From the NCBI GenBank assembly GCA_008632985.1, contig QPGO01000330.1, forward strand, positions 1 through 53,433: a stretch of 53,433 nucleotides of DNA, written 5' to 3'. Both the position numbers and the translations under genes were made by a program. The DNA is from Psammoneis japonica (Eukaryota). Below, piece after piece: positions 10,014 to 50,235 of the stretch; within the stretch, counting starts at the first letter, position 1, and every line of letters begins with the position of its first letter. The notes under the pieces were generated by a model. It was given only the letters and a program-made list of their open reading frames with translations, made no database searches and was not told the DNA's origin.

Positions 10014-10015
10014 GA

Positions 10016-12000: not shown

Positions 12001-12380
12001 CGTTCCAGGTCCAGGTGGGACCTCGTGCCACTGAACTGTGACATCGACAGTTTTTTGAATCACGTCGCATGTTGCGCACGTAGATTTCTACGTGATTTTT
12101 TCGATGTTTTTTGTCATTTTACGGTGCACTCATTGAGCGATCCGTCCAACAACTTTTGACATTTTTTGTTGCAGCGCAATTCTACAATGTCTTAAGAATC
12201 GCGCAGGGCAGGCGCATTTGCAAAAAAGTCGAGTGGCAAGAGGCACAATTGCACCACAAACTTGGCCGTTTGTTTGATGTTGAAGATGAACACATCCATC
12301 AATTAAATTCTCGTACTGCGGAGCTCGCACGCAGAATTCCACGGGCCCAATGTCACACGGAGTCCCACCTGGGACTGGAA
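12001..12380 (+). repeat. Dispersed ~380 bp repeat, copy A (copy B at 27553-27931)
   Basis: Colinear match from CGTTCCAGGT to CTGGAA; differences are almost all transitions. Confidence 0.9.
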
Positions 12381-13555: not shown

Positions 13556-14735
13556 TGCCCCATCGTTCGTCGAAACCTGAAAGACAGAAATGCACAAATT
13601 CAACGAGAGAAAATCATCCTTGAAATGAAACCAAGATCCGGGAAATGCACTTGCGCTCTTTTTCGTTCCGTCAATCGCATCCTTTTCCAGGTTTGCAGCG
13701 GCCTCTACATCCCCCCCAGCAAACTCCAATTCGTTGTTGGTGTGGACTGCCGGGTGCCGTTTCGTTTTCGAGTCATCGCTCGCATCCGTTGCCTCCATCA
13801 CGGCGGCATTTGCAATCTCCGTTTCGGTTGTTGGGACGCCTTCAGGGGGGCATTTCTTTCTCGTGTTGCCGCTCGCATCGTCCCCAGTGATTGCAGGGGT
13901 TGCATCAGAGTGAGATCCATTTCTGCGTGTGGCGTGCTTGTCATCTCTGTCATCCGTGGCATCCCCTGTTGCAGCACGAGGTGTCACCAAGGAAGCTCGG
14001 TCTTGTTTGCCAGAACCATGCTTGGCAGAAGGCGCTTCCAAGGAAACTCGACCCCGTTCGAAATGCACGAATTCAACGAGAGAAAATCATCCTTGAAATG
14101 AAACCAAGATCTGGGAAATGGACTTGCACTCTTTTTCGTTCCGTCAATCGCATCCTTTTCCAGGTTTGCAGCGGCCTCTACATCCCCCCCAGCAAACTCC
14201 AATTCGTTGTTGGTGTGGACTGCCGGGTGCCGTTTCGTTTTCGAGTCATCGCTTGCATCCGTTGCCTCCATCACGGCGGCATTTGCAATCTCCGTTTCGG
14301 TCGTTGGGACACCTTCAGGGGGGCATTTCTTTCTCGTGTTGCCGCTCGCATCGTCCCCAGTGATTGCAGGGGTTGCATCAGAGTGAGATCCATTTCTGCG
14401 TGTGGTGTGCTTGTCACAACTCCTCTGTGCCAGCTTTGTCGATTGCAGTGTTGTCGTTGTTCCTGGTTCGAAGGTTGGCGTGAGCAACCGCCCCATCGTT
14501 CATCAAAACCTGAAAGGCAGAAACAACCGAATTCAATGAGAGAACATCATCCTTGAAAAGAAATCAAGATCCGAAATGGACTTGCATTCTTTTTCGTTCC
14601 ATCAATCGCACCCTTTTCTGCGTTTGCAGCGGCCTCTGCACCCCCCCCAGCAAACTCCAATTCGTTGTTGGTGTGGACTGCCAAGTGCCGTTTTGTTTTT
14701 GAGTCGTCGTTTGCATTTGTGGCCTCCATCACGCC
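13556..14735. repeat. Three tandem-arranged copies (13556-13943, 14060-14416, and a more diverged 14488-14735)
   Basis: Copies 1 and 2 are offset by 473 bp and nearly identical. The repeated peptide ATDASDDSKTKRHPAVHTNNELEFAGG appears on the minus strand. Confidence 0.9.
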
Positions 14736-15270
14736 AATGGTGGCAGGCTCAGCGGTGTGCTGGGTGGCTGTGGTGGGCTCTGATGATTCAACAACGGAAA
14801 CTTCGCTTGTTGGCTTGCCAGGTCCACAATCTTCTGGAAATGCATTGCCGTTGTTGCCTGGTTTGACAGATCCGTTGACATCCAGCTGAGTTTTGCCATT
14901 GCTGTCGGGCCCGGAGAAGGAATCAACGCCTGGCATGTTGCACTCTTCAGCGGGTGATCCATCTCGGTTTGAGGGTGGCAGTGTGGCATTGTCCCCTTCA
15001 CGTCCTTCAGCTTTGTCACCCTCTCTCCCAACTGCAGCAGATGCTTTCACTGACAGCGCTCTGCTTGGTTTGCCCGGCAAAACTTCGGCTGGCTCTGGAC
15101 ATCCATTGGAAGCCTCCCTCGGCTTTTCAGTTGTGTTCGCGTCTAGCATGACAACGGTGGCAGCTGCAACATCTTGGCCACGAGAGATCTTCTGTCGTTT
15201 GGTCGTTGTGCGGTCCACAATTCTCTTGATCTCATGTCTCTTGTTTCCGGACAGCCAGACTCCATCCTTC

Positions 15271-15663
15271 NNNNNNNNNNNNNNNNNNNNNNNNNNNNNN
15301 NNNNNNNNNNNNNNNNNNNNNNNNNNNNNNNNNNNNNNNNNNNNNNNNNNNNNNNNNNNNNNNNNNNNNNNNNNNNNNNNNNNNNNNNNNNNNNNNNNNN
15401 NNNNNNNNNNNNNNNNNNNNNNNNNNNNNNNNNNNNNNNNNNNNNNNNNNNNNNNNNNNNNNNNNNNNNNNNNNNNNNNNNNNNNNNNNNNNNNNNNNNN
15501 NNNNNNNNNNNNNNNNNNNNNNNNNNNNNNNNNNNNNNNNNNNNNNNNNNNNNNNNNNNNNNNNNNNNNNNNNNNNNNNNNNNNNNNNNNNNNNNNNNNN
15601 NNNNNNNNNNNNNNNNNNNNNNNNNNNNNNNNNNNNNNNNNNNNNNNNNNNNNNNNNNNNNNN
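15271..15663. other. Assembly gap (N run)
   Basis: Run of N characters. Confidence 1.
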
Positions 15664-18255
15664 TCTCTGAAAACCGGAGCTTTTTGCGTTTCAGTCCCTG
15701 TCACACCCGGTCTGATGCCACTCTTGTTTTCACTGTCCAAAGCCAACAAGGCAGCTTTTCTGCGCCTGTGCCCGGTGAGCAACTTCGAGGGCTGGCACCA
15801 ATTCTTCCGCCATCTCCAAAACGGAACGAGCCCGTCGTGTGCAGTTGGCAGATTTCCATTGTTCGTCTGATGCAGATTCTTCCTCACCGTCTTGATCTCG
15901 TTCAGTTGCTGCTGAGGATTGGCAGCAGGTTGCTTTCGAGGAGCAGAGGGCACAGAGCCACGAGACAACACTTGATGTTGTCTTGGAGGATGTTGATTGC
16001 GGTTGTGGATGCTTCGAAGCGGACCTCCTTGCAAAGAAGAATGCTTCACATTGACCGTCGCAGTTCTGTTCAGTTTGGCGGCAGCAGTGGCACCAGACTG
16101 GTTGCTTGCTGCACGTTCTCTCAACAAACCCGCAATCATTCCATGTGTTTGCTCAAATTGATCCCGGTTTGCTTTTGAATGTTGATGGAGCTGAGGCGGT
16201 TTTTTTGCCGGCGTGTCTGGTGGAACCGTGAACTTCACATCACTCTGCATCTTCCAGTGCTGCAAACTGCAAAGATTGAAACAATGGACATTAGAAGGAT
16301 CGTTGGTCACAGTCAAACATTGTGCGACAAAGCGACTCTTGCCTCAAATGGTGCCGACGGAGACGTGCTTTTAGCTGATGTGTTTCAAAAACCATGCGCG
16401 TCAAGCTGATTTCCCTGCAGTTGTGCACTGCACAAAGAACAACGGCTTCATTAGATGAGAACAAGAAAATCAACGACAAGCATCAAACGTGACAAAGATG
16501 CAAAGAGTCGCACTTGCACTTGCATCAGCAGCAACAACAACGACAACGGCAAAGCGATTTGAGTGTCGTGGTTTTTGTGAGTGAGAGTGAAGATCGTTTG
16601 TGATTGCTGATGAAGCGCTTGGATTCCAACGAACTTTATGACGTCATGGATTTGTGGAAAATGAAGTCATTCAAATGTCAAAACTCTGAGATGTGCACTC
16701 CAGGATGAGCTCCGGTTCGCGGCCGCGGATCGCAAGCGCGCCACTGCGTGAAACACCGCGGTGCTGTTGCGGGGAATTTGATCAAATCTCGCACCAACGA
16801 TGGTGATGATTGCAACGCTAAGAAAGTCATCTAAACCTTCGATTCTGCAAGAACGCATTTGGCACACAATCAATTGGCATCTGTTGGATGGGTGTCTAAA
16901 TGCGTTCTCCACGATTTTGATTTTGTGGCGAGCTGTTGACAAACATGCCGATTCAGTCGTTTGTGATGCCATGTCACGTGCCGAGTCTTCATCAACCACT
17001 CACACGCCAGATTTTCGACACCCGCTGAGTTGAAGCCGGCGGTTGTAAAAAAGCTAAAAAACACAAATCGAAAATGGTGGTTGCACGAGCTTGCATTGGT
17101 TCGTGAAATTGGTGTGGAAGCGACCGCAGAGGAGACGGCAAGGGAGCAGCTGGGAGCAGTCCTGCGGGCAACGCAGGATGGGTTTCCAACATTTTCGTGG
17201 TCGGCGCAACAATGTGGGTCAAAAGAAAACTTCATGAATGTGAATGGAAAGACCGTCAAAGCCAGACCCAGGCATTTCCAATTTGGGGAGAGTCCACTTC
17301 TGATGAGGACTCAGCACTCGACATGTGAGCATGTTCGTGGTCGCAGTCGGTGGATCAACGACCCTGCTGCAAAAGCTCAACGGAGAGGCTGGTTGGCTTG
17401 CTTGGGCACAAGGGGAGTCCACCATGGAAGCCACTCAATTTCAGGAAAAAGATCTGCCGACAATGGCAGAAGGTTTCTTGGATTTTTTTGACCATCCTGA
17501 AGACATGGAGCGTGTTGCAGACGAGCTTCGGACAATTTTGAGGGATGGCAACTTGCTGTTTGAGCCAGACTCAAGCGCCATGGATCTTGATTCTGACAGT
17601 GATGATGCAGGCACCCGTGAAGGCAACAATTTTGTCTCTCCACCACCATCCAAGCGCCCCAGAACTGATGAGGACTCCATCATGGATCAAGACAGACGAC
17701 GAATGCGACAAAGACAGTGGCATCAACCGTGTTGAAGATCCTTGGCTCATGGCACCATTGCGGCAATTGGCAAAGGTTGATTTGAGAGCTTTCTCTGAAC
17801 TGGAATTTATTTTGCTTTCAACAGACCAGAGTGACAGCATTGGAGATGCTGCAGCAATCGTGGAGGCATGCAAGACTGGGGATTTGAGCCATCGTCCGAC
17901 ACCATCCAGCCTCTCGAGACGATGTCTGTTTTCAAGCTTCAGGCCTCCAGAAGGATCATTGAGACTGTTCGTGGTGAATTTGTGGCAACCCAGCAATGTT
18001 TCGAACCTTCTGACGATGAACCACTGATTGATTGGCTTGATCAAGTCAAGCAATTTGCAGAAGGCGAGCGATGCGGAGACTGCCACCAATGCGGCGACTG
18101 CGAGTGATGCAGAGAGTCGAGTGAGAGCTTCCTCGAAAAAAACTTCAATCGACTTCAGAATGGCATGTAAAGCATCAAGGACAGAGCAGCACAAGTCGTC
18201 CGACACGTTCGCCATTGCCACAACATTTGCTTGTCAAGAATGGGTGGGTTGCTGA

Positions 18256-22213: not shown

Positions 22214-22582
22214 TGCCGTGGGTGAGTGTGTCTGACCGCATGTGTGTCCTGTTCATGTTTGTCAGAGTTCTTCAGAATGTTTCCCGAACACCACAAGTCT
22301 GTTCAATGACTTGTTCCAACAACGTCAAGTCTTTCCAATGACTTGTTCCGAACAACAAATGTTTCCAATGACTTGTCACATGTGAGAAGAGCTCGGGTTT
22401 CTCTGTGCTTCAAGTGCTGCGTTCTGTCTAAAAATTTCTACGTGATCTCCGACAGACTGACTCTAGAGATCCTCTCCTCTGACTTTGCTCACAATTCATC
22501 TGTGAACCCAAATTGCTGCAAGCACATCTCGTCTGTCAAACTGTCAACCACTTTGTCAACTGTCATCTGGCGCCATTGGACA
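22214..22582 (+). repeat. 5' LTR (contains three internal CAATGACTTGT repeats)
   Basis: Ungapped alignment to 24481-24849, about 91% identical by manual count. Confidence 0.9.
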
Positions 22583-24480
22583 CATCAAATTTACTCCCCG
22601 TTTCCAAACACCTTGTCCTTTGCTTCCACGAAGCCCCTGACATTTACAGCAAGTTCTGCGAATTGTCCTGACCAGCCATGTCAGCCGAAAACTGTCCTTT
22701 CCATCTTGTTCGCTCCAAACGAACATGTGAAGAATGTCGCAAAGATCGTTTTGTGTCGTTCGAGTCTCCACTTGACCCAAATGACCCTGAAGGTCTCAAG
22801 TCTGCCATGGAAGTGTGCACGTTAGATGCCGAAGACCCTGAAGACACTCTTGCTTTCTTCAAGCGATTAGAAGAAGTTTCTGTCATTCTCAGTGTTGCAG
22901 AAGGAATCCCACGTTTCCGTCCAATCGACCGCCCATTGACAGGCCAGCCGATGGATGACTGGACTGCCATCATCGATGAATGCGAAGATTGAGATCAAGA
23001 CACTTTTTTTGCAGCATGTGAGGAACATCTTTTAACCAAGATGACCCGTGACATTGCGGTGGACACCAAAGATTGGTTGCAGTCCCTCAAGAAACCACGC
23101 AATGAGACCGCACAGTTGTTTCTCCAACACATCCATCAGATCAATGACCTCATTCCATTCATGCCATTGCCCGCGGATGAAGAAGACGCACAGCCCATTC
23201 CCAAGTTTGCGGAAGCGGAGTTGTCTGTCATCATCTGGAAAGCTTGTCCCAAATCCTGGAAAAACTCTCAAGTCCGTGCAAATCTACAAGGACTCAATCT
23301 CCGCAAGCAAGTCTCATGCTGCGAAAGTCTGCGCAACATTGACAACTCAGAATCATTTTTGCTGCCTTGTCAAAACCATGATGCAACCGCACAGCAATCC
23401 AAAACAGAATCAAGCAGCAAGAATCAGCAAGCCTTGCAACAAAAATCCAACTCCAACTCGAGTTCCCAAACAAACAACACATGTCCCATCCATGGAGCAG
23501 TCCATCCAAATGGACAAGAATGCAATGTCATTCGCTGTGAGCGAGAAATCTGCCAGCAGCGACGTCAACAAAGGCCCCAACGTGTCCAATCCTCAGAAAA
23601 CAATGGCCCAGACAACCAAACTCGGAGCCAGCCGCAACAGCAGCCAACTCATCGCTGCAACCTGCGCAGCAGAAGCAACCAACAAAGAAACAATGAAAAC
23701 AATGCGATGGAAGATCCTTCCAGCACCCACAATGATCCCCCAGAAGATCTTGGAAGCATGCCATCCGAAACCATCAACGAAATCTACAATCTTCATGATG
23801 AAATCAACGAGATTGAAAGTCAGAATGCTCAAGAATCTCAACAAAATGTCAGCGCAGATGTGCAAGTTCAACTTGCCTCGTCCTCTGCCTCTCATGCAGA
23901 GCAAGCACTCGGTCTCCTCGACTCTGGAGCCAACAACAACTGCACCAAGCGCGAAGCCCTTGAAAAAATCTCCCATCAAATCAAGCCAATTTCCACACCG
24001 GTGCAAAGCCGCTGCAAGTCAGCTCAAGTTCAGAACAAGGCAGCATTCAACATGACATTGCCTGAATTTTCTCAATCGAAGCCCATTGCCATTGAAGCGC
24101 ACATCGAAGACGGTGCAATTGGTCATCGTGCCATTGTTGTCGGTCGCCAAACGTGCAAACAACTCGACATTGTTCTGGATTTCACGACTGCCATGATGAC
24201 CTGTGGCAACGTCACCATCCCTGTGAAAACAGAAAACAAGACTCAACATGCCACCTGTGAAGACTGGCGTCACATCAATCGAAAACATCAAAACGTCCAA
24301 CTTCAAGTTGCGCCTCTGCAAGTCGGCTCAAGCCCAAATTTCATCCTGCCAATCGTTCCAAGTCCAAATTTAACTTTGCCAACGGTGCAGTCACCATCCA
24401 GCGCTCTTCTGACGTCACCGAATGGATCAATCTCCATCATCATCACCCTGAATTCTAGCCTGCCCAGTTGGGGAAGCAAG

Positions 24481-24849
24481 TGCCATGGGCGAGTGTGTCT
24501 GACCGCATGTGTGTCCTGTTCATGTTCATCAGAGTTCTTCAGAATGTTTCCCGAACACCACAAGTCTTTTCAATGACTTGTTTCAACAACGTTGAGTCTT
24601 TCCAATGACTTGTTCCAAACAACAAATGTCTCCAATGACTTGTCGTGTGTGAGAAGAACTCGGGTTTCTCCGTGCTTCAAGTGCTGCGTTCTGTCCACAA
24701 ATTTCTACGTGATCTCCGACAGACCAGCTCCAGAGATCCTCTCCTCTAACTTTGCTCACAACTCGTCTGTGAACCCAAATCACTGCGAGCACATCTCGTC
24801 TGTCAAACTGTCAACTGCTTCATCAACTGTCACCTGGCACCATTGGACA
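24481..24849 (+). repeat. 3' LTR
   Basis: Ungapped alignment to 22214-22582; preceded by a polypurine tract and followed by the TSD. Confidence 0.9.
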
Positions 24850-27552
24850 CTTGATGGCAGGCTTCACAACGTTTTCTTTTGTTTTGCTCACAAAATCTGT
24901 TGTTTTCGACTTCTTTGTTGTCAGGGTGAACACTTCTAGCCTCTTGTTGTAGAAAGAACAAGAATCAGAAGAGTTCTGCAGGCCAAAGGGAGCACTTCAA
25001 TCTCAATTTTTGACGCGTCCGCGGCGCGAGTCATTCGAGGGCTGGTTGCATCACATCGACCGCTGTTGTTCCAAGAGAGCCTCTCATTTTCAAGCTGAAC
25101 ATTGCGCCTTTGACACTTTAAAGGATCTTTGTGTAAAGAAACGGATCAAAGGTGCACTGTCATCTTGCAAAAGTCGATCAGACTCGATTGTTTGTGCAGT
25201 GGCGGGAACGGCACATGCTCGGACAGAGACGTCCATCGCCCAGGTCAGATGCACTCCAAAACACAGTCTCTAACATCAGCAACATTTCTGTCAGAACACT
25301 CAAGCATCAATTGCAGAATTGGCCTCACAGCAGGTCGCGCTCAGCTCTGCGACAATCCCAGACCCAATCTGATGCAATCGAAGCGCGCAACGAGTGCTGA
25401 GGCAATGCAATGGCTTAGACAACCAAGGTTGAGAGCCCCAGAAGACTGGCTCAGGCATGTTTTGCATCAACAGTGGAGTGACAACGGCCACAACATTGCT
25501 GGAAGAGCTTCTTGTGTTTGTTTGGTGGATGAGCCGGATGCATCAAATGTCTCCAGTCGAACAGCTTCCGGCATCTCAAGCCCTTGAACAACTTTGTCAT
25601 TTGTTCCAACCACCCATTGTCATTGCCATGGACCACTCATGGCAAGAAACAGATGAATTCACAACGATGCATGATGAACATTGTTGCATTCCGAGTCGAT
25701 TTGGTTGTCACGTGGGGGCTGGCAAACTGTTTCAAAGTGGACATGTGTTTGTTTCTGCTCACATGATTCCACCCAAGAAAGCGAATCCATCCATGCCACC
25801 ATTTTTGTTGAATCGATCAATGAACACAAGTGCTCTGGCATGTGCTTTGGTCGGAGAGACCTTTGAAACCTTTGCTGGACTCTGGTGGATGGAGGCAACA
25901 ACAATGAAAACGCATGAGAAGCAGCAATGTGAAAAAAAAGCATCTCAAGGACACAATCGAGCAGGAATCTCCATGACACATGCTCCCAGTCAGGTGTGAA
26001 AGGACTCTCCAGATGAGATTCCTGCTCGATTTTCAATGTCAACGCCGCCGCAAATGATGTTCCTGGTTCTTGGTTCTTGATCGATGTCTTTTTTTCTCGC
26101 GCAAAAAGCACGAAGATTTTCAGATGGCGGACGAGCGCGCCAAAAGACATTTTAGTCGAACGACTCATGCGGTCCCTCCATGTGCATTCACAGGGCCAGA
26201 CATTTTCTGTGACATGCCAAATCAGAGGGACAGCACACCCAATGTCAGAGGGACATGACAAGCGTGCAACTGCCACACACAGACACATGAACACCGAAGG
26301 ACGACACATTCAAAACTGAGGGACACGACACCACAACAATCACACCTCACACACACCAATGCTCAACGCTTCCAACGCTGCAACACAATGAGACACAACA
26401 TCACATCATGTTGCCGGTGCTGTGTGTCTGAACAACTGCAACATGCACAGAGCTGTGACACTGTGTTTTGTGGATGACTTTGTGTGGTCAACCCACCTTT
26501 TGACAGGGCTGCGCAGGTGCATTCCAAGAAAGACATTCGAGCCAGTGGACTTCGAGGTCCCAGACCACAGGCTCCGGCAACAAAAAATGAGTGTTGTTTT
26601 GTTTGTGTTGACACAATGTCGGCATTGCTGCCATCGTGTCCCGATTCATGTAAAAAAAAAAACAAGGCATTCTCTGTTGCAATGTGTGTCCTTGCACTGC
26701 TTCATTTTTCCCGCCATCTTGTTGAATTTGCTGCAGCAATCAATGGGTGCGTGCAAAAATGATGCCGGCATGATGCCGGTGTGATTTGTTCGGTGGCATT
26801 TATTTTCTCAATCTGTTGTTTTGCTTTGATCTTTGTTTGCTCTCCTGCAGAAAATCAAGATGCTTTGTGACTCCAAGAGATTGGTGTCGCGGGTGTTGAG
26901 TGCAGAGTGATGAGTGTTGGCAATGAGTGGGATGACATGTGATGCCATGTCATGTGTCATGTGCAGGGCGGCTTGAGCTGGTGCAGCACCAGCGTCATGC
27001 TGGGTGGCTCAATGTGAGAAGGAGCATTCTTTGTTGCACTTTGCAATCTCTGTCACTTTTGGAAAAGTCCCAAAACATGGGCAGACAAGGATCATGTCTC
27101 CAAATGACTCAAGTGTCTGCTGAGGATGCTGCTTGCAGCTGTGGCTCCTTGGTGATCCCACCTTCTGCATGGGCTGTTTTGATGAGAGCAAAAGGATTGC
27201 ATCCTGGGGGGTGATTGGGCACCTCCAGCACACGGGCGCCTGGCCATCTTTTTTGAAGGAGCCAAGAGTGTTGACGACCTCCCAAGTCTTGTTGCTTGTT
27301 TGTTTGCATTGCTTCTTCCTTTGGATGAAACGATTGCAAGACATGTGTTTGTGCAATGCTTGCAATGCTTTGAGCCCCACAGATGATCAAGCAAACAGAG
27401 ATGTCAGCTCAGTCGCTCAGTCGGACATGGAGTCTTGTTGATGTGGGTGGTGGTGTGTTGGGCACTTTGTTGGAGCAAGCATGAGTTGCCCGAGGCAGCA
27501 GTGAAGGCAATGGTGGTTTTGTTGAAGGGAGGTGCCAGGGGCTTGGCCGACG

Positions 27553-27931
27553 CGTTCCAGGTCTGGGTGGGACCTCGCACCACTGAGCTGTGACATCGAC
27601 AGTTTTTTGAATCGCGTCGCATGTCACGCACACAGATTTCTGCATGATTTTTGTGATGTTTTGTGTCATTTTACGGCACACTCATTGAGTGATCTGTCCA
27701 ACAACTTTTGACATTTTTTGTTGCAGCACGATTCTACAATGTCTTGAGAGTCACACAGGGCAGGCGCGTTTGCAAAAACGTTGAGTGGCAAGAGGCACAA
27801 TTGCACCACAAACTTGGCTGTTTGTTTGATGTTGAAGACAAACACATCCATCAATTGAGCTCTTGTGCTGCAGAGGTCGCACACAGAATTCCACGGGCCC
27901 ATGTTGCATGGAGTCCCGCCCAGGGCTGGAA
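27553..27931 (+). repeat. Dispersed ~380 bp repeat, copy B (copy A at 12001-12380)
   Basis: Colinear match to copy A, with further loss of TA and CG. Confidence 0.9.
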
Positions 27932-34803: not shown

Positions 34804-34917
34804 AACAACGACGGCGGAGGTATCTTTTTGTTTCTCCCTGTCGCTAAAAATGGAAATGTTAACAACGACGGCGGAGGTATCTTTTTGTTTCTCCCTGTCG
34901 CTAATAATGGAAATGTT
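34804..34917. repeat. 57 bp tandem duplication (34804-34860, 34861-34917), one mismatch
   Basis: AACAACGACGGCGGAGGTATCTTTTTG...GGAAATGTT occurs twice. Confidence 0.95.
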
Positions 34918-35421: not shown

Positions 35422-36468
35422 TTAGTCTTCAGCCGCAACCATCTCTCCATCGTCTTCTTCCTCTTCGATCTCGGCAAGCATGGCCGGATCCGGTTCTTCG
35501 TCGAGGACTTCGGCACAGAAGAAAATGACTTGCCTACGTCCAATCTCCAAGGCGGCTCTTGGTCCCATGGCGTAAAGAAACACCACCTCATCCGCCGTTT
35601 GCGTCTGCGTCGCTCCCGCTTCGTTCTGCTGCTTTTCCTTCAGAAGGTAGTCTTGGTGAACAAACTTGTCCAGAAGGTCGTCGACGTTGGGAGTCTCAGT
35701 ATCGTTTCCGGCGTACCGTTTCTTCTTGTCTTGCTTACGCGACGACGGTACCGGTGGTTCGGCCGGAATGTTTTCGTCCAGTCCGTTCAAGAGTACATAC
35801 AAATCCACATCTCGGATCCACCTCGATCCGTCGTTACGTCGCTCGCCCTTGCAATAGCAAAATGCCAAGACTAGCATGAGCAGCCCCTTGGCCATGGATT
35901 TCTTGGAATGAACCGAGTGAATCGCCTTGGAGTGACCGCCGCCCTCCTCATCCTCGAGGCCATTGATGAGAAAGAGTCTGTCCTTGTACTTGGTGGGCAG
36001 ACCTCCCTTTTGGTTACCGGTATCCATATATGCCGGAGCTCGGCGTAACTCGAATCCAAAGATGTTATGGAGACGAGTGGCGGCTTCTTCAAACGCAGAC
36101 TCGGTAATACGTTCACTGGCATAGTCACCCAGAGCCTCCTTGGCACACTTACGCTTGTCAATAGACTCTCCAGCGACGCCCTTGAAGAGAATCAAACGAG
36201 TCAAGTCAGTGACGAGCTTGTTCTTGGTGTCGCTGTGCATATTGTTCCACTTATTGCGCTCTGACGTCTTGATGGGAACCATGGGCTGAGACGGCTCTGG
36301 CTCTTGCTGCGTGAACTGTACCTGAGAGTAAACAGCATTGTTTCTGGGGTCTTCTTCTTCCTCCTCGTCTTCAGACATGTTGACGACTCGTGCAGCGGGC
36401 TTACGGTCGTCCTCGCTTACATCACTGTCTTCGTAAGTAGAGGAGTGGCGAGAGCTTCGACGGGACAT
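35422..36468 (-). CDS. NSE3: MAGE-domain protein, SMC5/6 complex subunit NSE3-like
   Basis: Intact 348 aa ORF with MAGE motifs LVTDLTRLILFK, LHNIFGFEL, GLLMLVLAF and YAMGPRAALEIGRRQVIFFCAEV. Confidence 0.85.
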   Translation of the reverse strand: MSRRSSRHSSTYEDSDVSEDDRKPAARVVNMSEDEEEEEDPRNNAVYSQVQFTQQEPEPSQPMVPIKTSERNKWNNMHSDTKNKLVTDLTRLILFKGVAGESIDKRKCAKEALGDYASERITESAFEEAATRLHNIFGFELRRAPAYMDTGNQKGGLPTKYKDRLFLINGLEDEEGGGHSKAIHSVHSKKSMAKGLLMLVLAFCYCKGERRNDGSRWIRDVDLYVLLNGLDENIPAEPPVPSSRKQDKKKRYAGNDTETPNVDDLLDKFVHQDYLLKEKQQNEAGATQTQTADEVVFLYAMGPRAALEIGRRQVIFFCAEVLDEEPDPAMLAEIEEEEDDGEMVAAED

Positions 36469-36619
36469 GATGGGAGAGATAGCTTGTGTTGCTGCGAGGT
36501 TTTCTTTTGTGCTACTTGGTGTTGCGGTGTGGTAGAAGTAGACAGTGCCGCACTTCTAGAGTTTGGAGTGTGCTGTGATGCTGTGTGCTTCCAAAATTCC
36601 AAAGTACTCTGTAGTTTCA

Positions 36620-39440
36620 AGATCTCGTCCTGCTTCGCTCGCTGCGCGCCAAAAAAAAAACTGAAAACGTCGTCCATCCGTCGATCACCGCGATCGCATT
36701 GATGTTCGCATTGATGTTTGTCCTTCAACAGTCGGGAAGGACAATGACCAAGCAACAAGGAAAGAAGAAAAAGGAGCATCATCTCATCGAGGAGTCCAGT
36801 CTCCAGTCAGTTGCGTGTTGCTTTGTGCTTGAGATTGATTTGCCTCTTGAATTTGGATGATTCCCCACGCGGCACACCACCCCCATTTTTTAAAAATTCG
36901 ACCACATGTGAGCTGGTCCCAAGCGACACATGTCGTGATGACAAAGAGCAGTCTGTCACCTGACAGGCAAGAAGAGCCCCCCCAGTCATGGACATGGATG
37001 TCACATGCTTTCTGTGTGCACAGAGTTTTCAATGCAATCCAGTGCCAAACAATCGATCATGCTGCCCCCTCAACACTTGCTCTCTCACAACGGACACACC
37101 CCCCAGCAACCCTCTTCTTGGCGGCTGCTTGGACAGCTCTCCACATTGCAAACTTGCAGCATGCTGAACATCATGGAAGCATCTCTTCCATCCCATGCTG
37201 CAGTCACCCCCACCATGCCAGCACCACCCACCAACAAGTGCCGCTGGAGCAACAAAACACCACTGCCATCACAAACACACCTGGCGAGGCTGCAGAAAGT
37301 GATGCTGACCTGCTTTTGGCTGATCCAACTAAACCGTGCTGTTCTGCTGGCATCAGGAGTGCAGCAATTTTGCTCATTGCCACCACCTTGGGAATGACCC
37401 AGCAAACCAATGCAGTGGGACACCCTGGGCTGGCTTTCACAAAGACCCCATGAACCTGCCTGCAAACATCATGATTTTCTGTGGCGTGGGCACTGGCAAA
37501 GCAGCAGATGTGGTCCAGAAGGCCATCTTGGGGGGTCTTTGGCAGCAAGATCATCAAAAAACGTCTGCACACTGGCTCCTTGTTTGGGGTCTTTCTGGTG
37601 CAGCCCATGTGCAGAGAAAACATGTGCAGCCTGTCCAGTGTTTGCCAAAGCTCCAAGTGCAAATCCTGCACAGCAAGTTTCTTTGGCAATCTTGCCATGT
37701 TCCCCAATCTGCCTGGGTGGCCCTGCAACACACAGCTGGGTGTGCCATCTCCCAAAACCATGGGTGATCATCAAGCTTGGGCCACACAGCAGACTGCTCC
37801 TGTTGCAACCAGCAGCCTGCCCTCAATCAGGGCGCATTGTGCTGTGCCTTTTTCCTTCAGAAGCCACACAGCTGGGGCATCAAGCCCTCAAAAAAGCATC
37901 TCATCTCTCAGGTGGTCTGTGCTGACCCTTGTTGTGGGGGTGTCCATTTCATCAAGATCAACACCCCAGATGGGCCACACCACATTTGGGTGCAATTGCC
38001 AGACAAACCACAAAACTTGCAGTGTCCTTGTTTTCCCAGAGCACTGGCGCATTTGGCAAACACCCCCCCCCCCCCCCCCCCCGGTGATCAAATCACCTCC
38101 ATGACATTTTTGTGCTGTTGCAGAAGCTGTTGCCAGCACAACAAACTGCCACATTCTCAAATGATGCCACGAGCATTGGCACCCACTTGAGACTCAGGCC
38201 TCCACAAGACCTGCTTGTGAGCCACTGCACAAGTCCTGATCAATGCCACTGACATGCACCACAGTCAGCATGCCTGACCTGTGAAACCTGCAAACCACCT
38301 GTCCCTGCAAGAACATGAAATCCTCAGTTGCATGATGGCTGGGCAACAATCTTTCAAGTCCAAAAAAGAGGCCTCTCAAGTGACTCTGAGAGAGCATCTT
38401 GGAAAGTGAACCATGGGCTGCACAGCACACCACACTGACAAAAGGAAACAATGTTGCAAAAAAACAGATGCTTGCTGCTCCCACTGTCTGTGGCTCAGAA
38501 GTGGCAACAACTTGCCTGCACACATTGTTTGCAAAAGCTTGCTTGTTGTTCACTTCTGAAAGCAAGCTTTGCGTGCCACTGGCAGCACTGGGGGGTGTTT
38601 CTCAGGGCAATGACACTGAAGGCTGGGCTGTGTTTGTGGGGCTTCTCTTTGCATCCAACAGAAAAGCCACCAGTGCTGCTGTGTCATGTCCTTGTTGGGT
38701 TTTTGGCACATGCTCTCTTTTGCTCCTCCTTCCCACACACCAAAGAGGTCTCTTCATTTCTTTTCTTTTCACTTGTGCAGTCACAACAGCCACAATGATT
38801 TTTTTCACCAACTTGTTGGGTCAATTGCTTGAGAAATTTAGCAATGGTCATGACACCGAAAAATCTCTCGGTTTCGCGCTCGATTTTCGATCACAACTCC
38901 TCGTCGTCTCACACAATGTGTTGTTGTTTGCCAAGCCGGAAGCCGCAATCTCCAAGGATGGCTCGCCCTTCCTCTGGATTGAGAGCTTGCTCTTGTTTGG
39001 CATTCCACAACTCATTTTGCTTGATGGTGTGTTGTCTCTCTTTTTCGACTCGTCCTCTCGTGCGATGTGCTTGTTGTTCGCCAAGCCGGAATGCCACGAC
39101 ACCCAAGGATGGCTCGCCCTTCCTCTGGCTCCAATTGCCTGCTCTTGTTTGGTGTTCCACAAATCATTTTGCTTGATGGCATGTTGTCTCAAATGGCAGC
39201 GCAGGTGTTGCCAGTTAAGTCCGGAGGTCGGGGCAAATCGAACGCGTGTCTTTGGCCTGGAGTCCATGTCACTCCCGTGTCTTTGACCGCAGGAAGTTGC
39301 CTGTTCGCTTGACCCGTCAGGTCACGGCTGTTGAAACAGACAGCAGCGTTCGTCTGCGAAGCAGCAAAAGCTCGCCAAGCAGATCATGCCGTTGACGGAA
39401 CGCGGGGTTTGGGGTTCCGTCGCATCAGTGACGTGGCACG
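36620..39440. other. TpA-depleted hypermutated domain 4 (unidentified repeat/TE remnant)
   Basis: I count no TA from ~37332 to ~38838 and only a handful in the whole domain. Confidence 0.9.
38921..39190. repeat. Two diverged ~120 bp direct copies, 150 bp apart
   Basis: TTGTTGTT(T/C)GCCAAGCCGGAA...CCAAGGATGGCTCGCCCTTCCTCTGG...TCATTTTGCTTGATGG at 38921 and 39071. Confidence 0.85.
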
Positions 39441-41039
39441 GTAAGTCTTCACTCGCAGGGAGTGTTGATTTAGCACGCGGTTGACTCGCAAGTTTCTCTT
39501 GCTGTCTCCGTAGTACGTCCCCCCTTTTTTCTTTTTTTGGGATGGTTTTCCACCCTGAAAATAGGAAAAAGCTTGAGCTCCATCTTTTGATGGTGCTCTT
39601 GAGGCAATGTTATCCTACGCGACCGATTTCTATCAACTTTTGATGTTGGCGTGTTTCAAATATTCGAAACACACTCTGAACCTTTACAATAGAGAAGTAG
39701 AAAGACTAAAAGTACCAGATAGCAATCTATATTTGCGTGTAATTTATTCCGTGCGTATGTCACTGGACTACGATGGCGGTCGTACCGCTTGCGATATTGT
39801 TGCATACTTTGATGCCATCGTTTCTGTTTTCGTACCACACCGCTCTCTTTCTTTCAGATTTTTTCTCGCTAGTATGCTTTCCTTGCCTGGGGTCCACGAT
39901 GAGACATTCGTTTTACGTCCGCCGCGTCTGATTGTCCAGTTACTTTTCATGGAGAGCTCCGCAGAGAGCTCTAATACAAAACGATAGATTTTCGTACTGT
40001 ACAGTAGTTGATGCAGTTATGAGGCCTCCCCAATTCCACGCGTTGATGTCAAATAGTGATGATGGTTGATTCACCTTCGCATCAACAAATGACGCGACTC
40101 CCTGAGCCTTGGTGGTTACTTTGTTTGAAAGTAGATAGCGGTAGATAATCGAGAATGCGGCCCAATCGCACCATCCAATTTATGTAAAAGCGGTTCTGCG
40201 TTGCGAGCAGTCGACCCGGTGCATTCTCCAAGACACAGCAGTCACTTAAATCAATTTCAATAAGCACTCGCACTGTCACGGCCGCCACCCCAAGCCCATT
40301 CACCGTATTCGCCCTTCTCCTCGTGGATCTTTACGCAAAACAAAACAGATCGTTTTCCGAAATTAAAGGAATGAATGGCTCCATTGATGCCATGAAAAAA
40401 GCATCCACGGGCTGGACAGCCAGTAGCCGTGTTGTTGTAGGCATTTCCATAATAGTCCAGCAAATCCAGCGCACGTACGACGTCCACGTTAGCAACGGAG
40501 TGTCACGAGCAAAATCAACAAGATGCTTTGAATCCGAATCGACCACGAGTTCTTTTTGACTTTTTGGAATAGGACTTGTTATGCAGTCATTCCAAGTGTC
40601 GACGACATGTACTTGGCCAGAGGTAGGCTAAGAAAGCATATAGATAAATTTCGCGGAAATGCTCCCCGAAAAGTGAGTACCCGGACCTCGATTCAAGTAC
40701 CTGACATGGTACACAAACCGACACGAGTGGATTGGAAGCACTGTATGAACAAAAACAGGCAAAAATAGAATTGGAAGTATGCGTCAGAGCAAAGCATACA
40801 TTGCTGTATTAATCGAACGCTTTTTCTGAGAAGCTCAACAACCAATAACACTCAACGTACCATGAAAAGGTCCCCTTTTCAATTTCTTCGTCGGTAACAC
40901 AATATCAATCGATAAGCGACACAAACAACACGCCAATGCATCCTGTCGTCGACTGTGATCCGTGATGATCTCAATCCGGAGCTTTGTCATCGTCGTCATG
41001 CCGTGCTTGTGGCTCATAGACGCTACCACAGAAAAGAGA

Positions 41040-47499: not shown

Positions 47500-50235
47500 C
47501 ATTCTTTTCCGTGGCCGTTGCCAACTCCCAACACATGCATGCTTCCTCGACATGTGGGCATTGTTCCACTGTCTCTTTGCACTCTGTCTCTCTCCACTGC
47601 CAGCTTTGTGGCAGCAAGAAGCAACAAAGTTGCAGGGGCTGGTGTCTCCTCCTCTGCCCAGCCAGAGGCAACTTTTCTGCGCAAGCCAGGCTGCCAGGAG
47701 AGTGACCCCTTTGTGCCTCCTCTTTGAGCTGCCAGCTGCTTGCAAGATCATGGGCACTTTGTTTTGAAAAAGGGCCATGGTGGTGTGCCCATGCAAGATG
47801 TGGTGAACTCTTCTTGCCTTTTCCTTGTCCTCTGCCACAGTGCAAATGAGACAAAACAGTGCTGCCAAAAACACTCCAAAAAAGCAGGGAGAGGCAAAGG
47901 GGGTGCTCTTCGCCACTGCTCAGCTGCTGTGGAGGAGAGCTGAAATGTTTCTGGAATGTTTTCTTGAGCACCACACAAGCCAAAGCACAGCAAGAAGATC
48001 ACAAGAAATGTGAGCTTCTTCTTTTGTTGCTCCAACACATGGCAAATGTTCTGAAGTTCTCCCCACAGCTTTTTGAGGCCTCTCACACAGTTTTTTCTTT
48101 AGACACCCAAGCAAAACTTTGCTGCCTGTGGTGTTGCATTAGTTCCACCCTTCATGCACTGAACCTTGACACAGATCAAGACATGTTTTTGTCTTCTTGC
48201 ATTGATGGGCTCATCTCAAACACACAACTCCACTTGATGTCAGCAAGCTCCTTGAAGGAATTTGCAAAAGGACAGCGTGCCTGTTGTCGTGAGCAATGAG
48301 AGCAAAGAAGACCCCATCACTGTGATGTGTGTCAGAGGCATGCACTTTGAAACATGCCACTCAATGCTCACATGCACTGAAGTTTTGCAATCTTCCACCC
48401 ACTTCTTCAGCAATGAGAACACAAACAACACGACTCCTGGGGGGATCTTTGAACAGGACCAGCGGGGCAAGAATTGGTTTGTTGACCATGTTCTTGAGTT
48501 TTTCAAGTTTGTTTTTGAGCACTCAATCACAGGCAAAATTGGCAACATGCTGCCTCTGAAAGCTTTGCCATCAACTGCTGTCTGCTGTTTGACCAAAATT
48601 GCTCTGTTCATCATGGGAAAGTCACAACTTGCTCATCACAAGGGCCTTGGCTTCTTTGACTAAAAAGAGCAAGACTCTGACAACCTGTTTTTGTTCAGGC
48701 TCCTCTCTCTTTGCCACAAACTGGTTGATGTGCTCTTGGTGCTGCAGATGTCTCACAGCACAATCTTGAACAGCTCAATGAACATTTGAGAAAAGTTTGG
48801 GGGTGCAATGCTTGCATTGAATTTGTGGGTTCAACTGTCAGGAGAGTCAGTCTGTTGAGGAGAAGACATCATGGAGGCCTTTGGCACAATGACCCCAAAA
48901 GGATGGTCTGCATCTGTGCCAACAACTGTCCTGTCACCAAGTGTGTTTGTTGTTGAGGAAGGAGGACAGGGGATCCCAAAACAGACATTGTCTGTCTGCC
49001 AGCTCATCATCTGGAAAAGCTCATCAAAACAAATTAGATGGGCAGCAGTCCAAAGCCATTCAATGTCATGACAACATCAAAAAACAGCAATGCTTGACTG
49101 CAGAGATGATGCTCGCCTTGTGTCGTTGTCTCCCACTCCCACAAGTGCACAGCTCTTGTCAGTCTCCTCATGCCAGAAAGAGGGGGCAGCGGTGCTTCTT
49201 GAGCTGTGCTGCCAGTTTGGCGCTGCAACTTGGAGTCTCAAAAAATTTCTCCAACCCTGTTGTGCAACATCCCTCCCATGCTCAGTGCCCTGAACAGACA
49301 ATTGTCTGGGCAGCCCTCCTCTTCCTTCCCCTCCTTTGCGCTGTGCTGGACTGACTGCAGGGCTGCCAGCTTTTTCAGTGCAGCTGAGCAAATTGAGCCC
49401 ATGTCTCATCCTTCAGGCTGCAGATTTTCTTGGTCTAAAGAGCAAAAAAAATCCTCTGACAAAAGGAGCCGCAAAATCTCAAGCTCAGTGGCAAGAAAAG
49501 AGGGTTCTTGTCTGCACTCAGCTGCAGTTTGAGGAGTTGCTCTCAAGAAAAAGTGCCCTCCTTGGATGATGCAGATTTTGGTGGCAGCGCAAACACCCAA
49601 ATGCTTGAATGCATGCCCAACTTCCCATGAGCATGTTGCTTGCACCTGATGTCCTGTGGTGCCATGAGAGGAGGCACGTGCAAGAGAGCCCACACATCAT
49701 CCCCTCTCCATGAATGTCGTGGCACTTGTCAAAAAGCAGACAGCACTGCTCTCACGGCTCACTCACATGCTGCTCAACAATCAAGAACTGCAAGTGCAGA
49801 GATTTTTGTTCATTGCCATCCAACTTGGATCACTTTTCTTTGCCTCTCTGGCCTTGTCTGCAGCTGTCTGTCGTCAACTTGACATGAGCTGGCACTGAGC
49901 CTCAAATTGAGCACATTCAAAGAACAGACACTCTGTTGCCAAGAAGCACCCCCACTCTTTTGCAGCACAAGAAGCAAGCAACAACATTTGGGACAGGATT
50001 TTTGCACACAGGTCTCTCTTGCTCTTTGCAGTGGCTGGAGTTGAGTTGGCCAGCTCCAGAAACGAGAGGTTGCCTGCTCTGCCTTTCTGCCCCTGTGGTC
50101 GTGGTCCCCCCACGCTCCTCGCTGCACAACACTCTCTTCTTCATTGGATGCCTTGCCTTGTCAAAGACACACACAGGAGTCACCCCAGCTGTGAGATGAG
50201 CTTGTTGGGTGTGGGCTGAAGAGCTGCCAACAAAC
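47500..50235. other. TpA-depleted hypermutated domain 5, located between two divergent host genes
   Basis: About five TA in 2.7 kb (TTTAG, ATTAG, CTAAA, TTAGA, TCTAA); CpG is also very rare. Confidence 0.9.
49880..50230 (-). pseudogene. XPG/FEN1/EXO1-family nuclease remnant
   Basis: LTAGVTPVCVFDKARHPMKK resembles the XPG-N motif GI.P.FVFDG...P.K. FECAQFEAQCQL resembles the XPG-I motif AP.EAEAQ. Confidence 0.55.

Follow-up and report, generated by a model that had tools for sequence, protein, structure and literature searches.

The window, the whole 53,433-bp stretch of Psammoneis japonica DNA analysed here (contig QPGO01000330.1), contains a gene with MAGE homology (35425..36555, minus strand, ATG at 36468; Pfam PF01454, E 1.1e-22) whose named homologues are from diatoms (best identity 54%) and whose TA and CG frequencies are normal. 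Adjoining this gene is a 2.8-kb block (36613-39441) in which TA begins at only four positions (36891, 37330, 38839 and 39216, all of them YTAR) compared with about 158 expected, counting from the TA at 36612 on the left and up to 39442 on the right. CG depletion is narrower and is confined to 36935-38856 (13 CG versus about 125 expected): CG starts are frequent at 36626-36934 (n = 21), become sparse at 37054-38572 (n = 13) and return to high frequency at 38857, with 42 as far as 39439. The block consists of a 1.9-kb CG-poor core (36935..38856) between a left edge of 322 bp (36613..36934) and a right edge of 585 bp (38857..39441). With expected counts taken from the base composition of each segment, the left edge has 1 TA versus 21.6 and 20 CG versus 18.5 (G+C 0.48), the core has 2 TA versus 112.7 and 13 CG versus 125.0, and the right edge has 1 TA versus 29.2 and 42 CG versus 42.7 (G+C 0.54). 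An independent two-state/three-state segmentation places TA depletion at 36651-39400 and CG depletion at 36951-38850, in agreement with the counts and with the description given in an earlier note on this DNA, namely CG-rich, nearly TA-free edges around a core without TA and most CG, the two profiles having different borders at this block.

As an empirical control, 20,354 bp of TA-normal DNA from the same window was used; its longest TA-free gap is 161 bp, none of its 1844 windows of 322 bp has fewer than 4 TA (median 13), and none of its 1700 windows of 585 bp has fewer than 12 (median 24). These control windows and the expected counts indicate that the TA scarcity of both edges far exceeds chance and is not an effect of G+C, which disposes of the suggestion that the edges are too GC-rich for TA to be expected. 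Both TA borders of the block are steps, with 9 TA in the 210 bp on the left (36403-36612) and 23 TA in the 359 bp to the right of 39441.

The two edges differ in kind. The left edge lies upstream of the MAGE-homology gene, no more than about 90 bp from where that gene's transcript contig ends, and is single-copy: one 2325-nt contig of sequencing run X1 (34918-37241; word depth 60.5, 0 other letters) spans the gene, the left edge and the first part of the core, and run X1 contains no look-alike contig at 88% likeness or more to this contig. Thirteen of the CG of the left edge are clustered in 82 bp (36626-36707), and their density falls toward the core. Run X2, which appears from two 91-nt skips with CT..AC ends to be a transcript library, gives no cover over 37149-38470 and 47725-50368, a gap from which no conclusion is drawn. 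The core, in which TG+CA is raised (0.236 of steps versus about 0.148 in normal DNA), has a word depth of 60-80 in run X1. None of its 27 ORFs of at least 70 aa reached the Pfam cut-off, nor did any of the 38 ORFs scanned in the main block and the 47.5-50.2 kb block, and when the window was compared with itself, in ordinary as well as purine/pyrimidine code, neither the core nor the two edges had a copy at any other place in it. Both the core and the left edge may be transposon relics, or perhaps 'older' pieces.

The right edge consists of many-copy repeats, with a 152-bp unit present 1.8 times in tandem at 38916-39190, followed by a second repeat that begins near 39195, where the contigs of run X1 have loose ends and unlike flanks. 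It is represented in run X1 by 5-7 different contigs with variants, and the summed word depth is 1159-9505 versus 58-60 alongside, a measure that is not equated with copy number and supports only the presence of many near-identical copies; a 26-base word of the repeat had 0 matches among metagenome contigs. Other copies of the repeat carry TA at 39290, 39423 and 39437 and CG at 38988 and 39096, positions at which the window has CA or TG. Immediately right of the TA border (39442..39800), TA is normal at once (23 versus 28.6 expected, including 7 RTAY) in DNA that is still repeated in run X1 (summed depth 3324 at 39497 and 836 at 39691), and most other copies carry TA at position 39456, which is CA in the window. 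Because repeated DNA continues to the right with normal TA, repetition alone does not set the TA border. At 39.3-45.3 kb, none of the 37 ORFs scanned (of 40 listed) scored in Pfam.

Pyrimidine-purine steps make up 0.22-0.26 of all steps in every segment, and the share of TG+CA rises from 0.147-0.149 in normal DNA to 0.176-0.186 where TA alone is lost and 0.214-0.238 where both TA and CG are lost (whole window: CA 1.49, TG 1.46). Because the total is constant, the missing steps have been converted rather than avoided. LTR and TIR pairs, repeat copies, step balance and product classes all identify the TA changes as A:T-to-G:C, TpA becoming TpG or CpA. To judge from the sites that survive and from their products, TA erasure is aimed at the A of 5'-TAY-3': surviving TA (n = 104) comprise 61 YTAR and 2 RTAY versus 145 and 278 in normal DNA (n = 848); RTAY occurs 0.2 times per 1000 in TA-free/CG-rich DNA versus 13.7 in normal DNA, while CG stands there at 59 versus 54; and in the same TA-free/CG-rich DNA the gain per 1000 is 12.7 for the product classes of the TAY strand and 1.2 for those of the TAR strand. 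The 3' neighbour of surviving TA is A in 0.42-0.50, G in 0.34-0.36 and T in 0.03-0.05, which marks TAG and TAA as poor substrates; the order of erasure by 3' neighbour is TAT > TAC > TAG > TAA.

CG loss follows other rules. CG makes up 0.007-0.012 of steps in the cores versus 0.049-0.062 in normal DNA, and its loss ranges by context from 71% (RCGY) to 92% (YCGR), a difference of about 2-fold in rate compared with the roughly 60-fold difference in survival between RTAY and YTAR. YTAR decays more slowly than CG. Changes of CG to TG or CA exceed others between tandem units (7 versus 2 in 358 columns) and, counted one-sidedly, number 8 versus 8 non-YR changes in an LTR pair. Residual TA and residual CG are correlated (Spearman 0.43, p 5e-4, 60 bins), a relationship that a shared cause would fit too. 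The A:T-to-G:C direction of the TA changes, their own TAY rule and their completeness where CG density is normal support the earlier proposal that TA loss is not a by-product of CpG deamination.

Segmentation yields five TA-depleted domains in the window (1.9-15.7 kb, TA o/e 0.01-0.06), and all five strongly CG-depleted segments lie inside them, with none outside; the genes are TA-normal and the genic parts have CG o/e of 0.92-1.05. A TA-free stretch of 5.5 kb that keeps its CG (11701..17200, including a 393-N gap) has 23 TA versus 293.1 expected (o/e 0.08) and 292 CG versus 321.7 (o/e 0.91). Four further places had been named as showing the same pattern as the edges. Two of them do so, 13000-20400 being TA-poor yet CG-retaining (TA o/e 0-0.19, CG o/e 0.49-1.2) and 8280-8530 having 25 CG and 1 TA. 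At 4690-4760 the pattern is real but only 70 bp long, and belongs to a TIR element inserted at 4694-5246, whose ends are rich in CG. The fourth, 50250-50340, does not qualify: TA at 50240 and 50242 split it from the TA-free block, and its 114-bp gap is within the normal range, control DNA having 10 TA-free gaps of at least 108 bp. In the second gene-flanked TA-free/CG-poor block (47551..50200; 5 TA versus 172.3 expected, 21 CG versus 158.3) the borders of TA and CG coincide, the last TA and the last frequent CG on the left being at 47492 and 47548, and the first TA and first frequent CG on the right at 50240 and 50256. Where a CG-poor core meets normal DNA, the TA and CG borders lie no more than 75 bp apart in five of seven cases (offsets -75 to +70 bp). 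A spreading halo is not a general phenomenon. Among 79 ORFs at 2.8-31.6 kb, Pfam matches were below cut-off only (Pif1_2B, 23.5 bits with cut-off 23.9; RVP, 16.6 with cut-off 20.7).

Mobile elements within the window permit comparison of related copies. An LTR element (22214..24850, plus strand; flanking 5-bp repeat CTCGA/CTTGA) has 370-bp LTRs at 22214-22583 and 24481-24850 that are 91.1% identical, or 99.5% in purine/pyrimidine code; over 370 columns they differ by 7 TG/CA doublets, 4 one-sided TA, 8 one-sided CG and 8 non-YR changes, corresponding to losses per copy of 0.83 for TA versus 0.34 for CG (rate ratio 4.3, support range 0.8-12.1). Two copies of a 385-bp TIR element (11996..12380 and 27548..27931) share the end motif CGYGTTCCAG with a 553-bp TIR element (4694..5246; 14-nt inverted ends, CACC at both flanks) that is inserted in an erased CG-poor block. 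The 553-bp element is unmutated, having 51 TA versus 57.0 expected, including 17 RTAY, even though erased DNA touches both of its ends; 385-bp copy 1 is partly erased (7 TA, 25 CG) and copy 2 more so (2 TA, 17 CG), so that the TIR elements form a graded series. The 385-bp pair was also considered as a pair of LTRs, an assignment rejected on finding that both are copies of a TIR element, and for that reason it is not used as an equal-age clock. Its one-sided losses (copy 2:copy 1) are 5:0 for TA and 14:5 for CG, with a TA/CG rate ratio of 1.4 (range 0.4-4.0). TA loss does not always come first, since copy 1 shows 5 one-sided CG losses and no one-sided TA loss; and CG o/e near 1 is no proof of zero CG loss, since elements may start out rich in CG (about 39 per 385 bp in the ancestor of this TIR element). 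In a tandem array with units of about 470 bp (13587..14733), comparison of units 1 and 2 over 358 columns reveals 7 CG-vs-TG/CA differences, 0 TG/CA doublets, 1 shared TA and 2 other differences; the array was already without TA when it was duplicated, with 28 CG per 358 bp at that time, of which 7 sites have changed since.

The proposal that TA erasure is faster than CG loss is upheld for some of the sites only, and with wide error: RTAY sites, the tandem array and the LTR pair favour it, the TIR pair gives a ratio of 1.4, and YTAR sites decay more slowly than CG. Erasure has struck the LTR element, the 385-bp TIR copies and the repeated right edge, and has spared the 553-bp TIR element and the repeats right of 39441. 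The step borders, together with a TIR element that lies within erased DNA yet is unmutated, indicate that nearness to erased DNA is insufficient, which bears on how targets are recognized.

We consider it probable that the silenced DNA undergoes two mutation processes of different chemistry and that the halo results from a mosaic of pieces with different histories. The first process would convert A to G at the adenine of 5'-TAY-3' on either strand, turning TpA into TpG or CpA in place in the chromosome; it would be thorough, RTAY being essentially extinct, and probably burst-like. Its chemistry may be deamination of adenine to hypoxanthine by a deaminase acting on DNA. The second process would be a slower, steady decay of CpG to TpG or CpA, of which the simplest cause would be deamination of 5-methylcytosine in repeat islands that, by analogy with other diatoms, may be CG-methylated. 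A piece of DNA that came under the first process would become TA-free quickly and then lose CG over time. The core (36935-38856) would have been exposed longest or most heavily; the many-copy repeats of the right edge, with TA already erased, would be younger and only starting to lose CG; and the left edge may have kept its CG through lower methylation near an active promoter, or through shorter exposure. On this reading, pieces of different age make up the TA-free block, which would account for the halo. A more far-reaching version, which we advance only tentatively, is that the TpA erasure signal is independent of CpG methylation, comes in short saturating bursts from a DNA adenine deaminase reading 5'-TAY-3', which resembles the U-A-C context of the TadA/ADAT2 tRNA target, and reaches single-copy promoter DNA to about 90 bp from the transcript end. 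If this were true, the mosaic of TA-free/CG-rich and TA-free/CG-poor DNA would be a two-clock record of silencing time for each piece.

The signature of TpA erasure has already been described in the chlorarachniophyte Bigelowiella natans, in which, according to the text of a 2026 preprint, integrated viral DNA undergoes A:T-to-G:C hypermutation of TpA only, in some lines only, with new mutations arising at roughly 1000 times the background rate (Mettrop et al., bioRxiv 10.64898/2026.01.13.699255). With B. natans as that text presents it, the two cases are alike in that TpA alone is altered, becoming TpG or CpA by strand, in the A:T-to-G:C direction against the usual bias; in that the changes appear confined to regions poor in TpA and rich in CpA+TpG, ordinary genes being spared; and in that activity in only some lines fits the bursts suggested here. 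They differ in host, the present one being a diatom; in targets, which here are repeats, LTR/TIR elements and unidentifiable relics rather than the giant-virus and virophage DNA of the preprint; and in extent (TA o/e 0.02-0.08 here versus Rho 0.45 given for the B. natans NCLDV region). The 3' neighbour rule TAT > TAC > TAG > TAA has no counterpart in the text sections of the preprint, although its tables of mutated sites may hold one, and how TpA erasure relates to CpG loss is not taken up, the term 'CpG' being absent from that text. Full-text literature searches yielded no report that diatoms erase TpA, nor any on how such erasure relates to the loss of CpG. CG-methylated transposon islands are known from diatoms (Hoguin et al. 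2023, PMC9998398), and the present CG loss is similar in that CG becomes TG or CA in repeat islands of an otherwise CG-normal genome with weak dependence on flanking bases; it differs in its bias for YCG over RCG and in always accompanying a wider and fuller loss of TA, which methylation cannot produce.

Two other mutational systems share features with the erased DNA. ADAR hyper-editing resembles it in changing A to G with a 5' T (U) and in having repeats as target. ADAR favours a 3' G. Editing of RNA by ADAR, fixed by retrotransposition, was rejected as an explanation on the survival of TAG and TAA, which is contrary to this preference, and editing before integration, which would leave the same changes in both LTRs, was rejected on the 7 doublets and 4 one-sided TA by which the LTRs differ; furthermore, the changes here extend to TIR elements, tandem repeats and single-copy DNA. 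Independent mutation of the LTRs after insertion and the presence of targets that are not retroelements identify chromosomal DNA as the substrate. RIP in ascomycetes likewise produces dense transitions in repeat or mobile blocks and alters the chromosomal copy. RIP is a C-to-T process, mainly CpA to TpA, that makes TpA and lowers G+C. Its direction is the opposite of that seen here, where TpA is destroyed (TA o/e 0.02-0.08, G+C 0.47-0.54) by polarised change of TA to CA or TG.

Spatial spreading, in which a TpA mutator nucleated on a methylated core overruns some hundreds of bases, CpG methylation and decay being confined to the core and the edges being collateral damage, is unlikely but survives better than the other alternatives. 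The left edge accords with it, being single-copy, joined to the gene in one contig with no look-alike at 88% or more, and promoter-like, with a CG cluster such as is found at two other gene 5' ends; so does the location of the right TA border (between 39456 and 39514) inside DNA still repeated in run X1. RIP can overrun into single-copy neighbours, including genes, as related in parts of one account (PMC3105345). Here, the single-copy left edge is TA-free but ends in a step, other borders lack overrun, and no gradient is seen at either TA border of the block; the 553-bp TIR element retains 51 of about 57 TA between erased stretches; five of seven core borders are offset by only -75 to +70 bp; and the right CG border is a junction to different, repeated sequence. 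The step borders, the intact element, the distinct repeats of the right edge and the shared borders leave the claim that TA loss spreads wider undemonstrated, and allow spreading only at the single-copy left edge.

A single DNA deaminase with two substrates, acting fast on A in TpA and slowly on C in CpG so that CG loss is a late stage that needs no methylation, appears quite improbable. Both losses yield TG or CA, every CG-poor core sits wholly within TA-free DNA, residual TA and CG correlate (rho 0.43), the more TA-erased TIR copy has lost more CG too (TA 5:0, CG 14:5), and CG loss prefers a 5' pyrimidine (YCGR 92% versus RCGY 71%), all of which it would explain. The order of YCG over RCG differs from that of spontaneous 5mC decay in humans. 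Against a single enzyme, the context dependence of the two losses is more than 10-fold apart (about 60-fold for TA versus about 2-fold for CG), and 5.5 kb of fully TA-erased DNA retains CG at 0.91 of expectation. The B. natans preprint refers to ADAT2 enzymes able to edit A as well as C in DNA, but C-to-T change was nearly absent from the hypermutated regions, for which the text gives u_GC>AT as 3.9e-9 versus u_AT>GC of 6.85e-7 (10.64898/2026.01.13.699255); moreover, the CG-methylated TE islands of diatoms already predict CG decay (PMC9998398). The two-process mosaic remains the account that we prefer.

That no targeted process acted at all, the pattern arising from faults of assembly or base calling, from G+C content or from selection against TA, is scarcely credible: the best-matching run may be the assembly's own data (the three sequencing runs represent one sample, and library type is not on record) and TA-free DNA has the long, selection-like ORFs that absence of TAA and TAG brings, but G+C of 0.48-0.54 predicts 21.6 and 29.2 TA in the edges, no normal window of 322 or 585 bp approaches their TA counts, 34918-37241 recurs without any difference in the Logan contigs of run X1, repeat copies differ exactly at TA-vs-CA and CG-vs-TG sites, the pyrimidine-purine total is constant, and the Pfam scans found no protein domain to be under selection.

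Separating the two losses provides a working rule: in this genome, absence of TA marks DNA as having been targeted, and the CG that is left indicates the duration or intensity of the targeting. The TAY rule, set against the weak context dependence of CG loss, helps to narrow down the enzyme, and argues against RNA editing of the ADAR type and against TA loss as a plain by-product of methylation. A second lineage besides Bigelowiella with such a signature would suggest that a defence-like mutator is widespread among SAR protists. Because erased DNA has no TAA or TAG stops, it also contains long false ORFs.

The window as a whole has observed/expected ratios of 0.278 for TpA (TA), 0.706 for CpG (CG), 1.49 for CA and 1.46 for TG. 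Between 36612 and 39442, TA occurs only at 36891, 37330, 38839 and 39216, and CG is dense at 36626-36934 (21), sparse at 37054-38572 (13) and dense again from 38857 (42 up to 39439). Set against expectations from base composition, the block 36613-39441 consists of a left edge (36613-36934, G+C 0.48; 1 TA versus 21.6 expected, 20 CG versus 18.5), a core (36935-38856, G+C 0.52; 2 TA versus 112.7, 13 CG versus 125.0) and a right edge (38857-39441, G+C 0.54; 1 TA versus 29.2, 42 CG versus 42.7). The control, TA-normal DNA totalling 20,354 bp and taken from this window, is mostly coding, and its ancestral composition may differ from that of mobile elements; its longest gap between TA steps is 161 bp, none of its 1844 windows of 322 bp holds fewer than 4 TA, and none of its 1700 windows of 585 bp fewer than 12. 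Hidden-state segmentation, run separately for the two steps, places TA depletion at 36651-39400 and CG depletion at 36951-38850. The TA-free halo beyond the CG-depleted core reported in an earlier note is thus borne out for this block: control windows never approach the TA counts of the edges, so that neither GC-richness of the edges nor shared borders of the two losses account for it.

The two edges differ in nature. Logan contigs of three sequencing runs from one sample (possibly the assembly's own) were compared with the window over 31200-51000. One contig of run X1 (2325 nt, 34918-37241, word depth 60.5) covers without a difference the stretch from a MAGE-homology gene across the left edge to the first part of the core, and no other contig of the three runs shows at least 88% likeness to the left edge; left edge and core are therefore single-copy at contig resolution. 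On this side CG thins gradually (13 in 36626-36707, 8 in 36708-36934, 6 in 36935-37335, 7 in 37336-38856), and TA changes abruptly, in a single step at 36612/36613. The contig of run X2 over the MAGE gene stops at 36523; if X2 is a transcript-like library, as two 91-nt skips with CT..AC ends suggest, the left edge would lie on the promoter side of the gene. Two other genes have comparable CG clusters upstream (47417-47516, 50256-50341), which both contain or adjoin TA. Within the core, a second X1 contig (38024-38165, depth 35) differs mostly at CG-versus-TG/CA sites (38048, 38101, 38102, 38165). This contig, perhaps from an allele or a paralogue, may record CG decay still in progress.

From about 38860, 5-7 different contigs contribute variant letters at each of the sites listed, word depth sums to 1159-9505 compared with 58-60 in adjacent DNA, contigs with unlike flanks stop at 39195, and copies vary in their number of 152-bp tandem units, indicating that the right edge comprises many-copy repeats of at least two kinds. 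Where these repeats meet the presumably older core lies the sharp CG border, at 38857. Among the 40 of 308 differences listed, at least four are sites where other copies have TA and the window CA (39290, 39423, 39437, 39456), all four with a 5' G, which places the changed opposite-strand adenine in TAC, as predicted by a rule of A:T-to-G:C change at the adenine of 5'-TAY-3' (Y, pyrimidine; R, purine); at least two are sites where other copies have CG and the window TG (38988) or CA (39096). The copy in the window was therefore erased of TA in place, and its CG loss has begun. Beyond 39441, TA is immediately normal (23 over 359 bp, including 7 RTAY). The run nevertheless shows this DNA, too, to be repeated (word depths sum to 3324 at 39497 and 836 at 39691), so that being repeated is not by itself what fixes the border. 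Elsewhere, the tandem units of 12 and 17 bp at 41776-42436, where contigs loop back and summed depth is high in both runs (642, 1149), form a repeat with normal TA; erasure is thus not universal among repeats. The block is probably a mosaic: its core would be old and heavily exposed, the repeats to the right of the core younger, and the single-copy DNA to the left promoter-side. Each of these pieces has been hit by the TA process, and they differ in the amount of CG lost.

Segmentation of the whole window yields five TA-depleted domains (2901-4750, 5201-20850, 21601-31500, 36651-39400, 47501-50200) and five strongly CG-depleted segments (2801-4650, 5251-6800, 28201-29050, 36951-38850, 47551-50250), and the CG-poor segments all lie inside TA-free DNA, none outside it. 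Since, in addition, 11701-17200 keeps CG at 0.91 of expectation while TA is at 0.08, the two losses are separable, in one direction only. In the 750 bp between two long TA-free domains (20851-21600), TA is normal, at a level resembling that of genes (29, with 52.8 expected from composition), and so is CG.

Wider spreading of TA loss, proposed in the earlier note, is not shown by the borders. By our reading of the TA and CG position lists, the TA-free zone overshoots the seven borders between CG-poor cores and TA-normal DNA by -75, +70, +46, +322, +585, +56 and -16 bp; five borders thus coincide, and the broad halo is peculiar to the block 36613-39441. Further halos had been suggested at 8280-8530 and 13000-20400, which hold; at 50250-50340, which is cut off by TA at 50240 and 50242, leaving an ordinary gap of 114 bp; and at 4690-4760, which is the CG-rich, TA-free end of a 553-bp insertion. 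This TIR element (4694-5246; 14-nt inverted ends, CACC on each flank) keeps 51 TA versus 57.0 expected (17 RTAY) between two fully erased, CG-poor stretches; either it inserted very recently or the mutator fails to recognise its sequence. Spreading of erasure out of a core, possible for the left edge only, is opposed by the step-like borders of TA loss, by the five borders that coincide and by this element, untouched despite erased DNA on either side.

Other repeats in the window record the order of events. The inverted end motif of the 553-bp element, CGYGTTCCAG, also ends two 385-bp MITE-like TIR copies (11996-12380, 7 TA and 25 CG kept; 27548-27931, 2 TA and 17 CG kept), which on that ground were rejected as an LTR pair; the 553-bp element, copy 1 and copy 2 form a series of increasing erasure. 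The greater TA loser of the 385-bp copies (5:0) is also the greater CG loser (14:5), from an ancestor estimated at about 39 CG per 385 bp, and the fitted TA/CG rate ratio is only 1.4 (0.4-4.0); this and the other pair-based rates rest on 4-30 sites. True LTRs of 370 bp (22214-22583, 24481-24850) bound a 1.9-kb interior in the element 22214-24850, whose 5-bp target duplication (CTCGA, CTTGA) itself differs by one CG-to-TG change. The LTRs are 91.1% identical, and 99.5% identical in purine/pyrimidine code, with 7 TG-versus-CA doublets, 4 one-sided TA and 8 one-sided CG. Because such a doublet can arise only by independent change of the same ancestral TA (or CG) in each LTR, the changes followed insertion and occurred on chromosomal copies, which rules out edited RNA fixed by reverse transcription. 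From an ancestor with an inferred 15 TA in 370 bp, like normal DNA, each LTR copy has, by a likelihood fit, lost 0.83 of its TA (support range 0.45-0.94) and 0.34 of its CG (0.16-0.60), a rate ratio of 4.3 (0.8-12.1). Units of the tandem array 13587-14733 share a single TA and have no doublets; of their roughly 28 CG sites 7 differ, as do just 2 other positions in 358 columns, indicating that TA erasure was finished before duplication, with CG still dense, and that CG decay continued afterwards.

Each of the two losses is a conversion to TG/CA. Whatever the segment, pyrimidine-purine steps account for 0.22-0.26 of the total, divided into TA 0.034-0.045, CG 0.049-0.062 and TG+CA 0.147-0.149 in normal DNA; about 0.004-0.006, 0.057 and 0.176-0.186 in TA-free, CG-rich DNA, the class of the two edges of the block (TG+CA 0.162 and 0.166); and 0.001-0.006, 0.007-0.012 and 0.214-0.238 in cores. 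With the total constant, the gain in TG+CA matches the lost TA, or the lost TA plus CG.

The sequence rules of the two losses differ. The 104 TA surviving in depleted DNA are YTAR (61), YTAY (24), RTAR (17) and RTAY (2), compared with 145, 215, 210 and 278 of 848 in normal DNA, and all four in the block are YTAR. Counted on both strands, T is the 3' neighbour of 3-5% of the survivors and C of 10-22% (27% and 31% in normal DNA), implying susceptibility in the order TAT > TAC > TAG > TAA. Independently of the survivors, the product classes of TA-free, CG-rich DNA confirm the TAY rule: that of the TAY strand (YTGY+RCAR) gains 12.7 per 1000, that of the TAR strand (RTGR+YCAY) 1.2. CG loss in cores ranges from 71% (RCGY) to 92% (YCGR), a roughly two-fold range in rate, with modestly shifted contexts among survivors. 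The TA process thus follows a strong, enzyme-like rule and CG decay is nearly context-free, as two separate processes would predict. A single deaminase, fast on TA and slow on CG, would suit the strict nesting of CG-poor cores in TA-free DNA, the correlation of residual TA with residual CG in depleted DNA (Spearman 0.43, p 5e-4, 60 bins of 500 bp) and the bias of CG loss to a 5' pyrimidine, but three points count against it: the two losses depend on context to widely differing degrees, 5.5 kb of the window combine complete TA loss with intact CG, and hypermutated regions of Bigelowiella natans show next to no C-to-T change (10.64898/2026.01.13.699255). Within the limits of a single sample, the run contigs, the mass balance of steps, the TA-normal control windows and the differences among repeat copies rule out artefact, composition and selection as the cause.

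Separate loss of TA, as the earlier note had proposed, is therefore supported, and its greater speed holds for TAY sites only. Adenines in TAY disappear much earlier than CG does (RTAY 0.2 per 1000 in TA-free, CG-rich DNA versus 13.7 in normal DNA, with CG there undiminished by count), and YTAR sites more slowly. YTAR survivors drop from 2.6 to 1.5 per 1000 as CG drops from 59 to 9 per 1000. Some young insertions are TA-untouched or half-touched, yet their CG loss is under way. Together these features fit TA erasure in saturating bursts, rather than by a steady clock, over steady CG decay. The phenomenon in P. japonica belongs to the kind of TpA hypermutation described in 2026 in mutation-accumulation lines of B. 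natans, where A:T-to-G:C change is restricted to TpA and to two integrated viral regions, in a subset of lines (10.64898/2026.01.13.699255). That sole published case likewise reports bursts, and its text mentions neither CpG nor diatoms. The window adds one-way nesting of CG-poor cores in TA-free DNA, the TAY rule set against a weak CG context, and evidence that most halos are junctions of pieces differing in age. By analogy, CG-methylated transposon islands such as those of other diatoms (PMC9998398) would predict such local CG decay, methylation being presumed here.

The window, a eukaryotic scaffold interrupted by a gap of 393 N, has among its ordinary genes those for a protein kinase, the MAGE-homology protein (named relatives all from diatoms, at no more than 54% identity), a NuA4 subunit and a PLP enzyme. 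The gene-like, TA-normal segment 31200-35165 has a word depth of 220-286 in X1 versus 58-60 in its neighbours, with exact matches to single contigs of depth 183-231, and may be multi-copy. Lacking TAA and TAG, the TA-free DNA (2900-31500, 36613-39441) carries long, overlapping open frames on both strands, of up to 527 aa; nearly all are without a family match and are probably false. The 527-aa frame, in the LTR element, matches only a retroviral protease, below threshold. Another, at 9635-10207 on the reverse strand inside a TA-free domain, has a sub-threshold match to the Pif1 helicase 2B domain (23.5 bits versus the Pfam cut-off of 23.9) and may be a Helitron-type relic.
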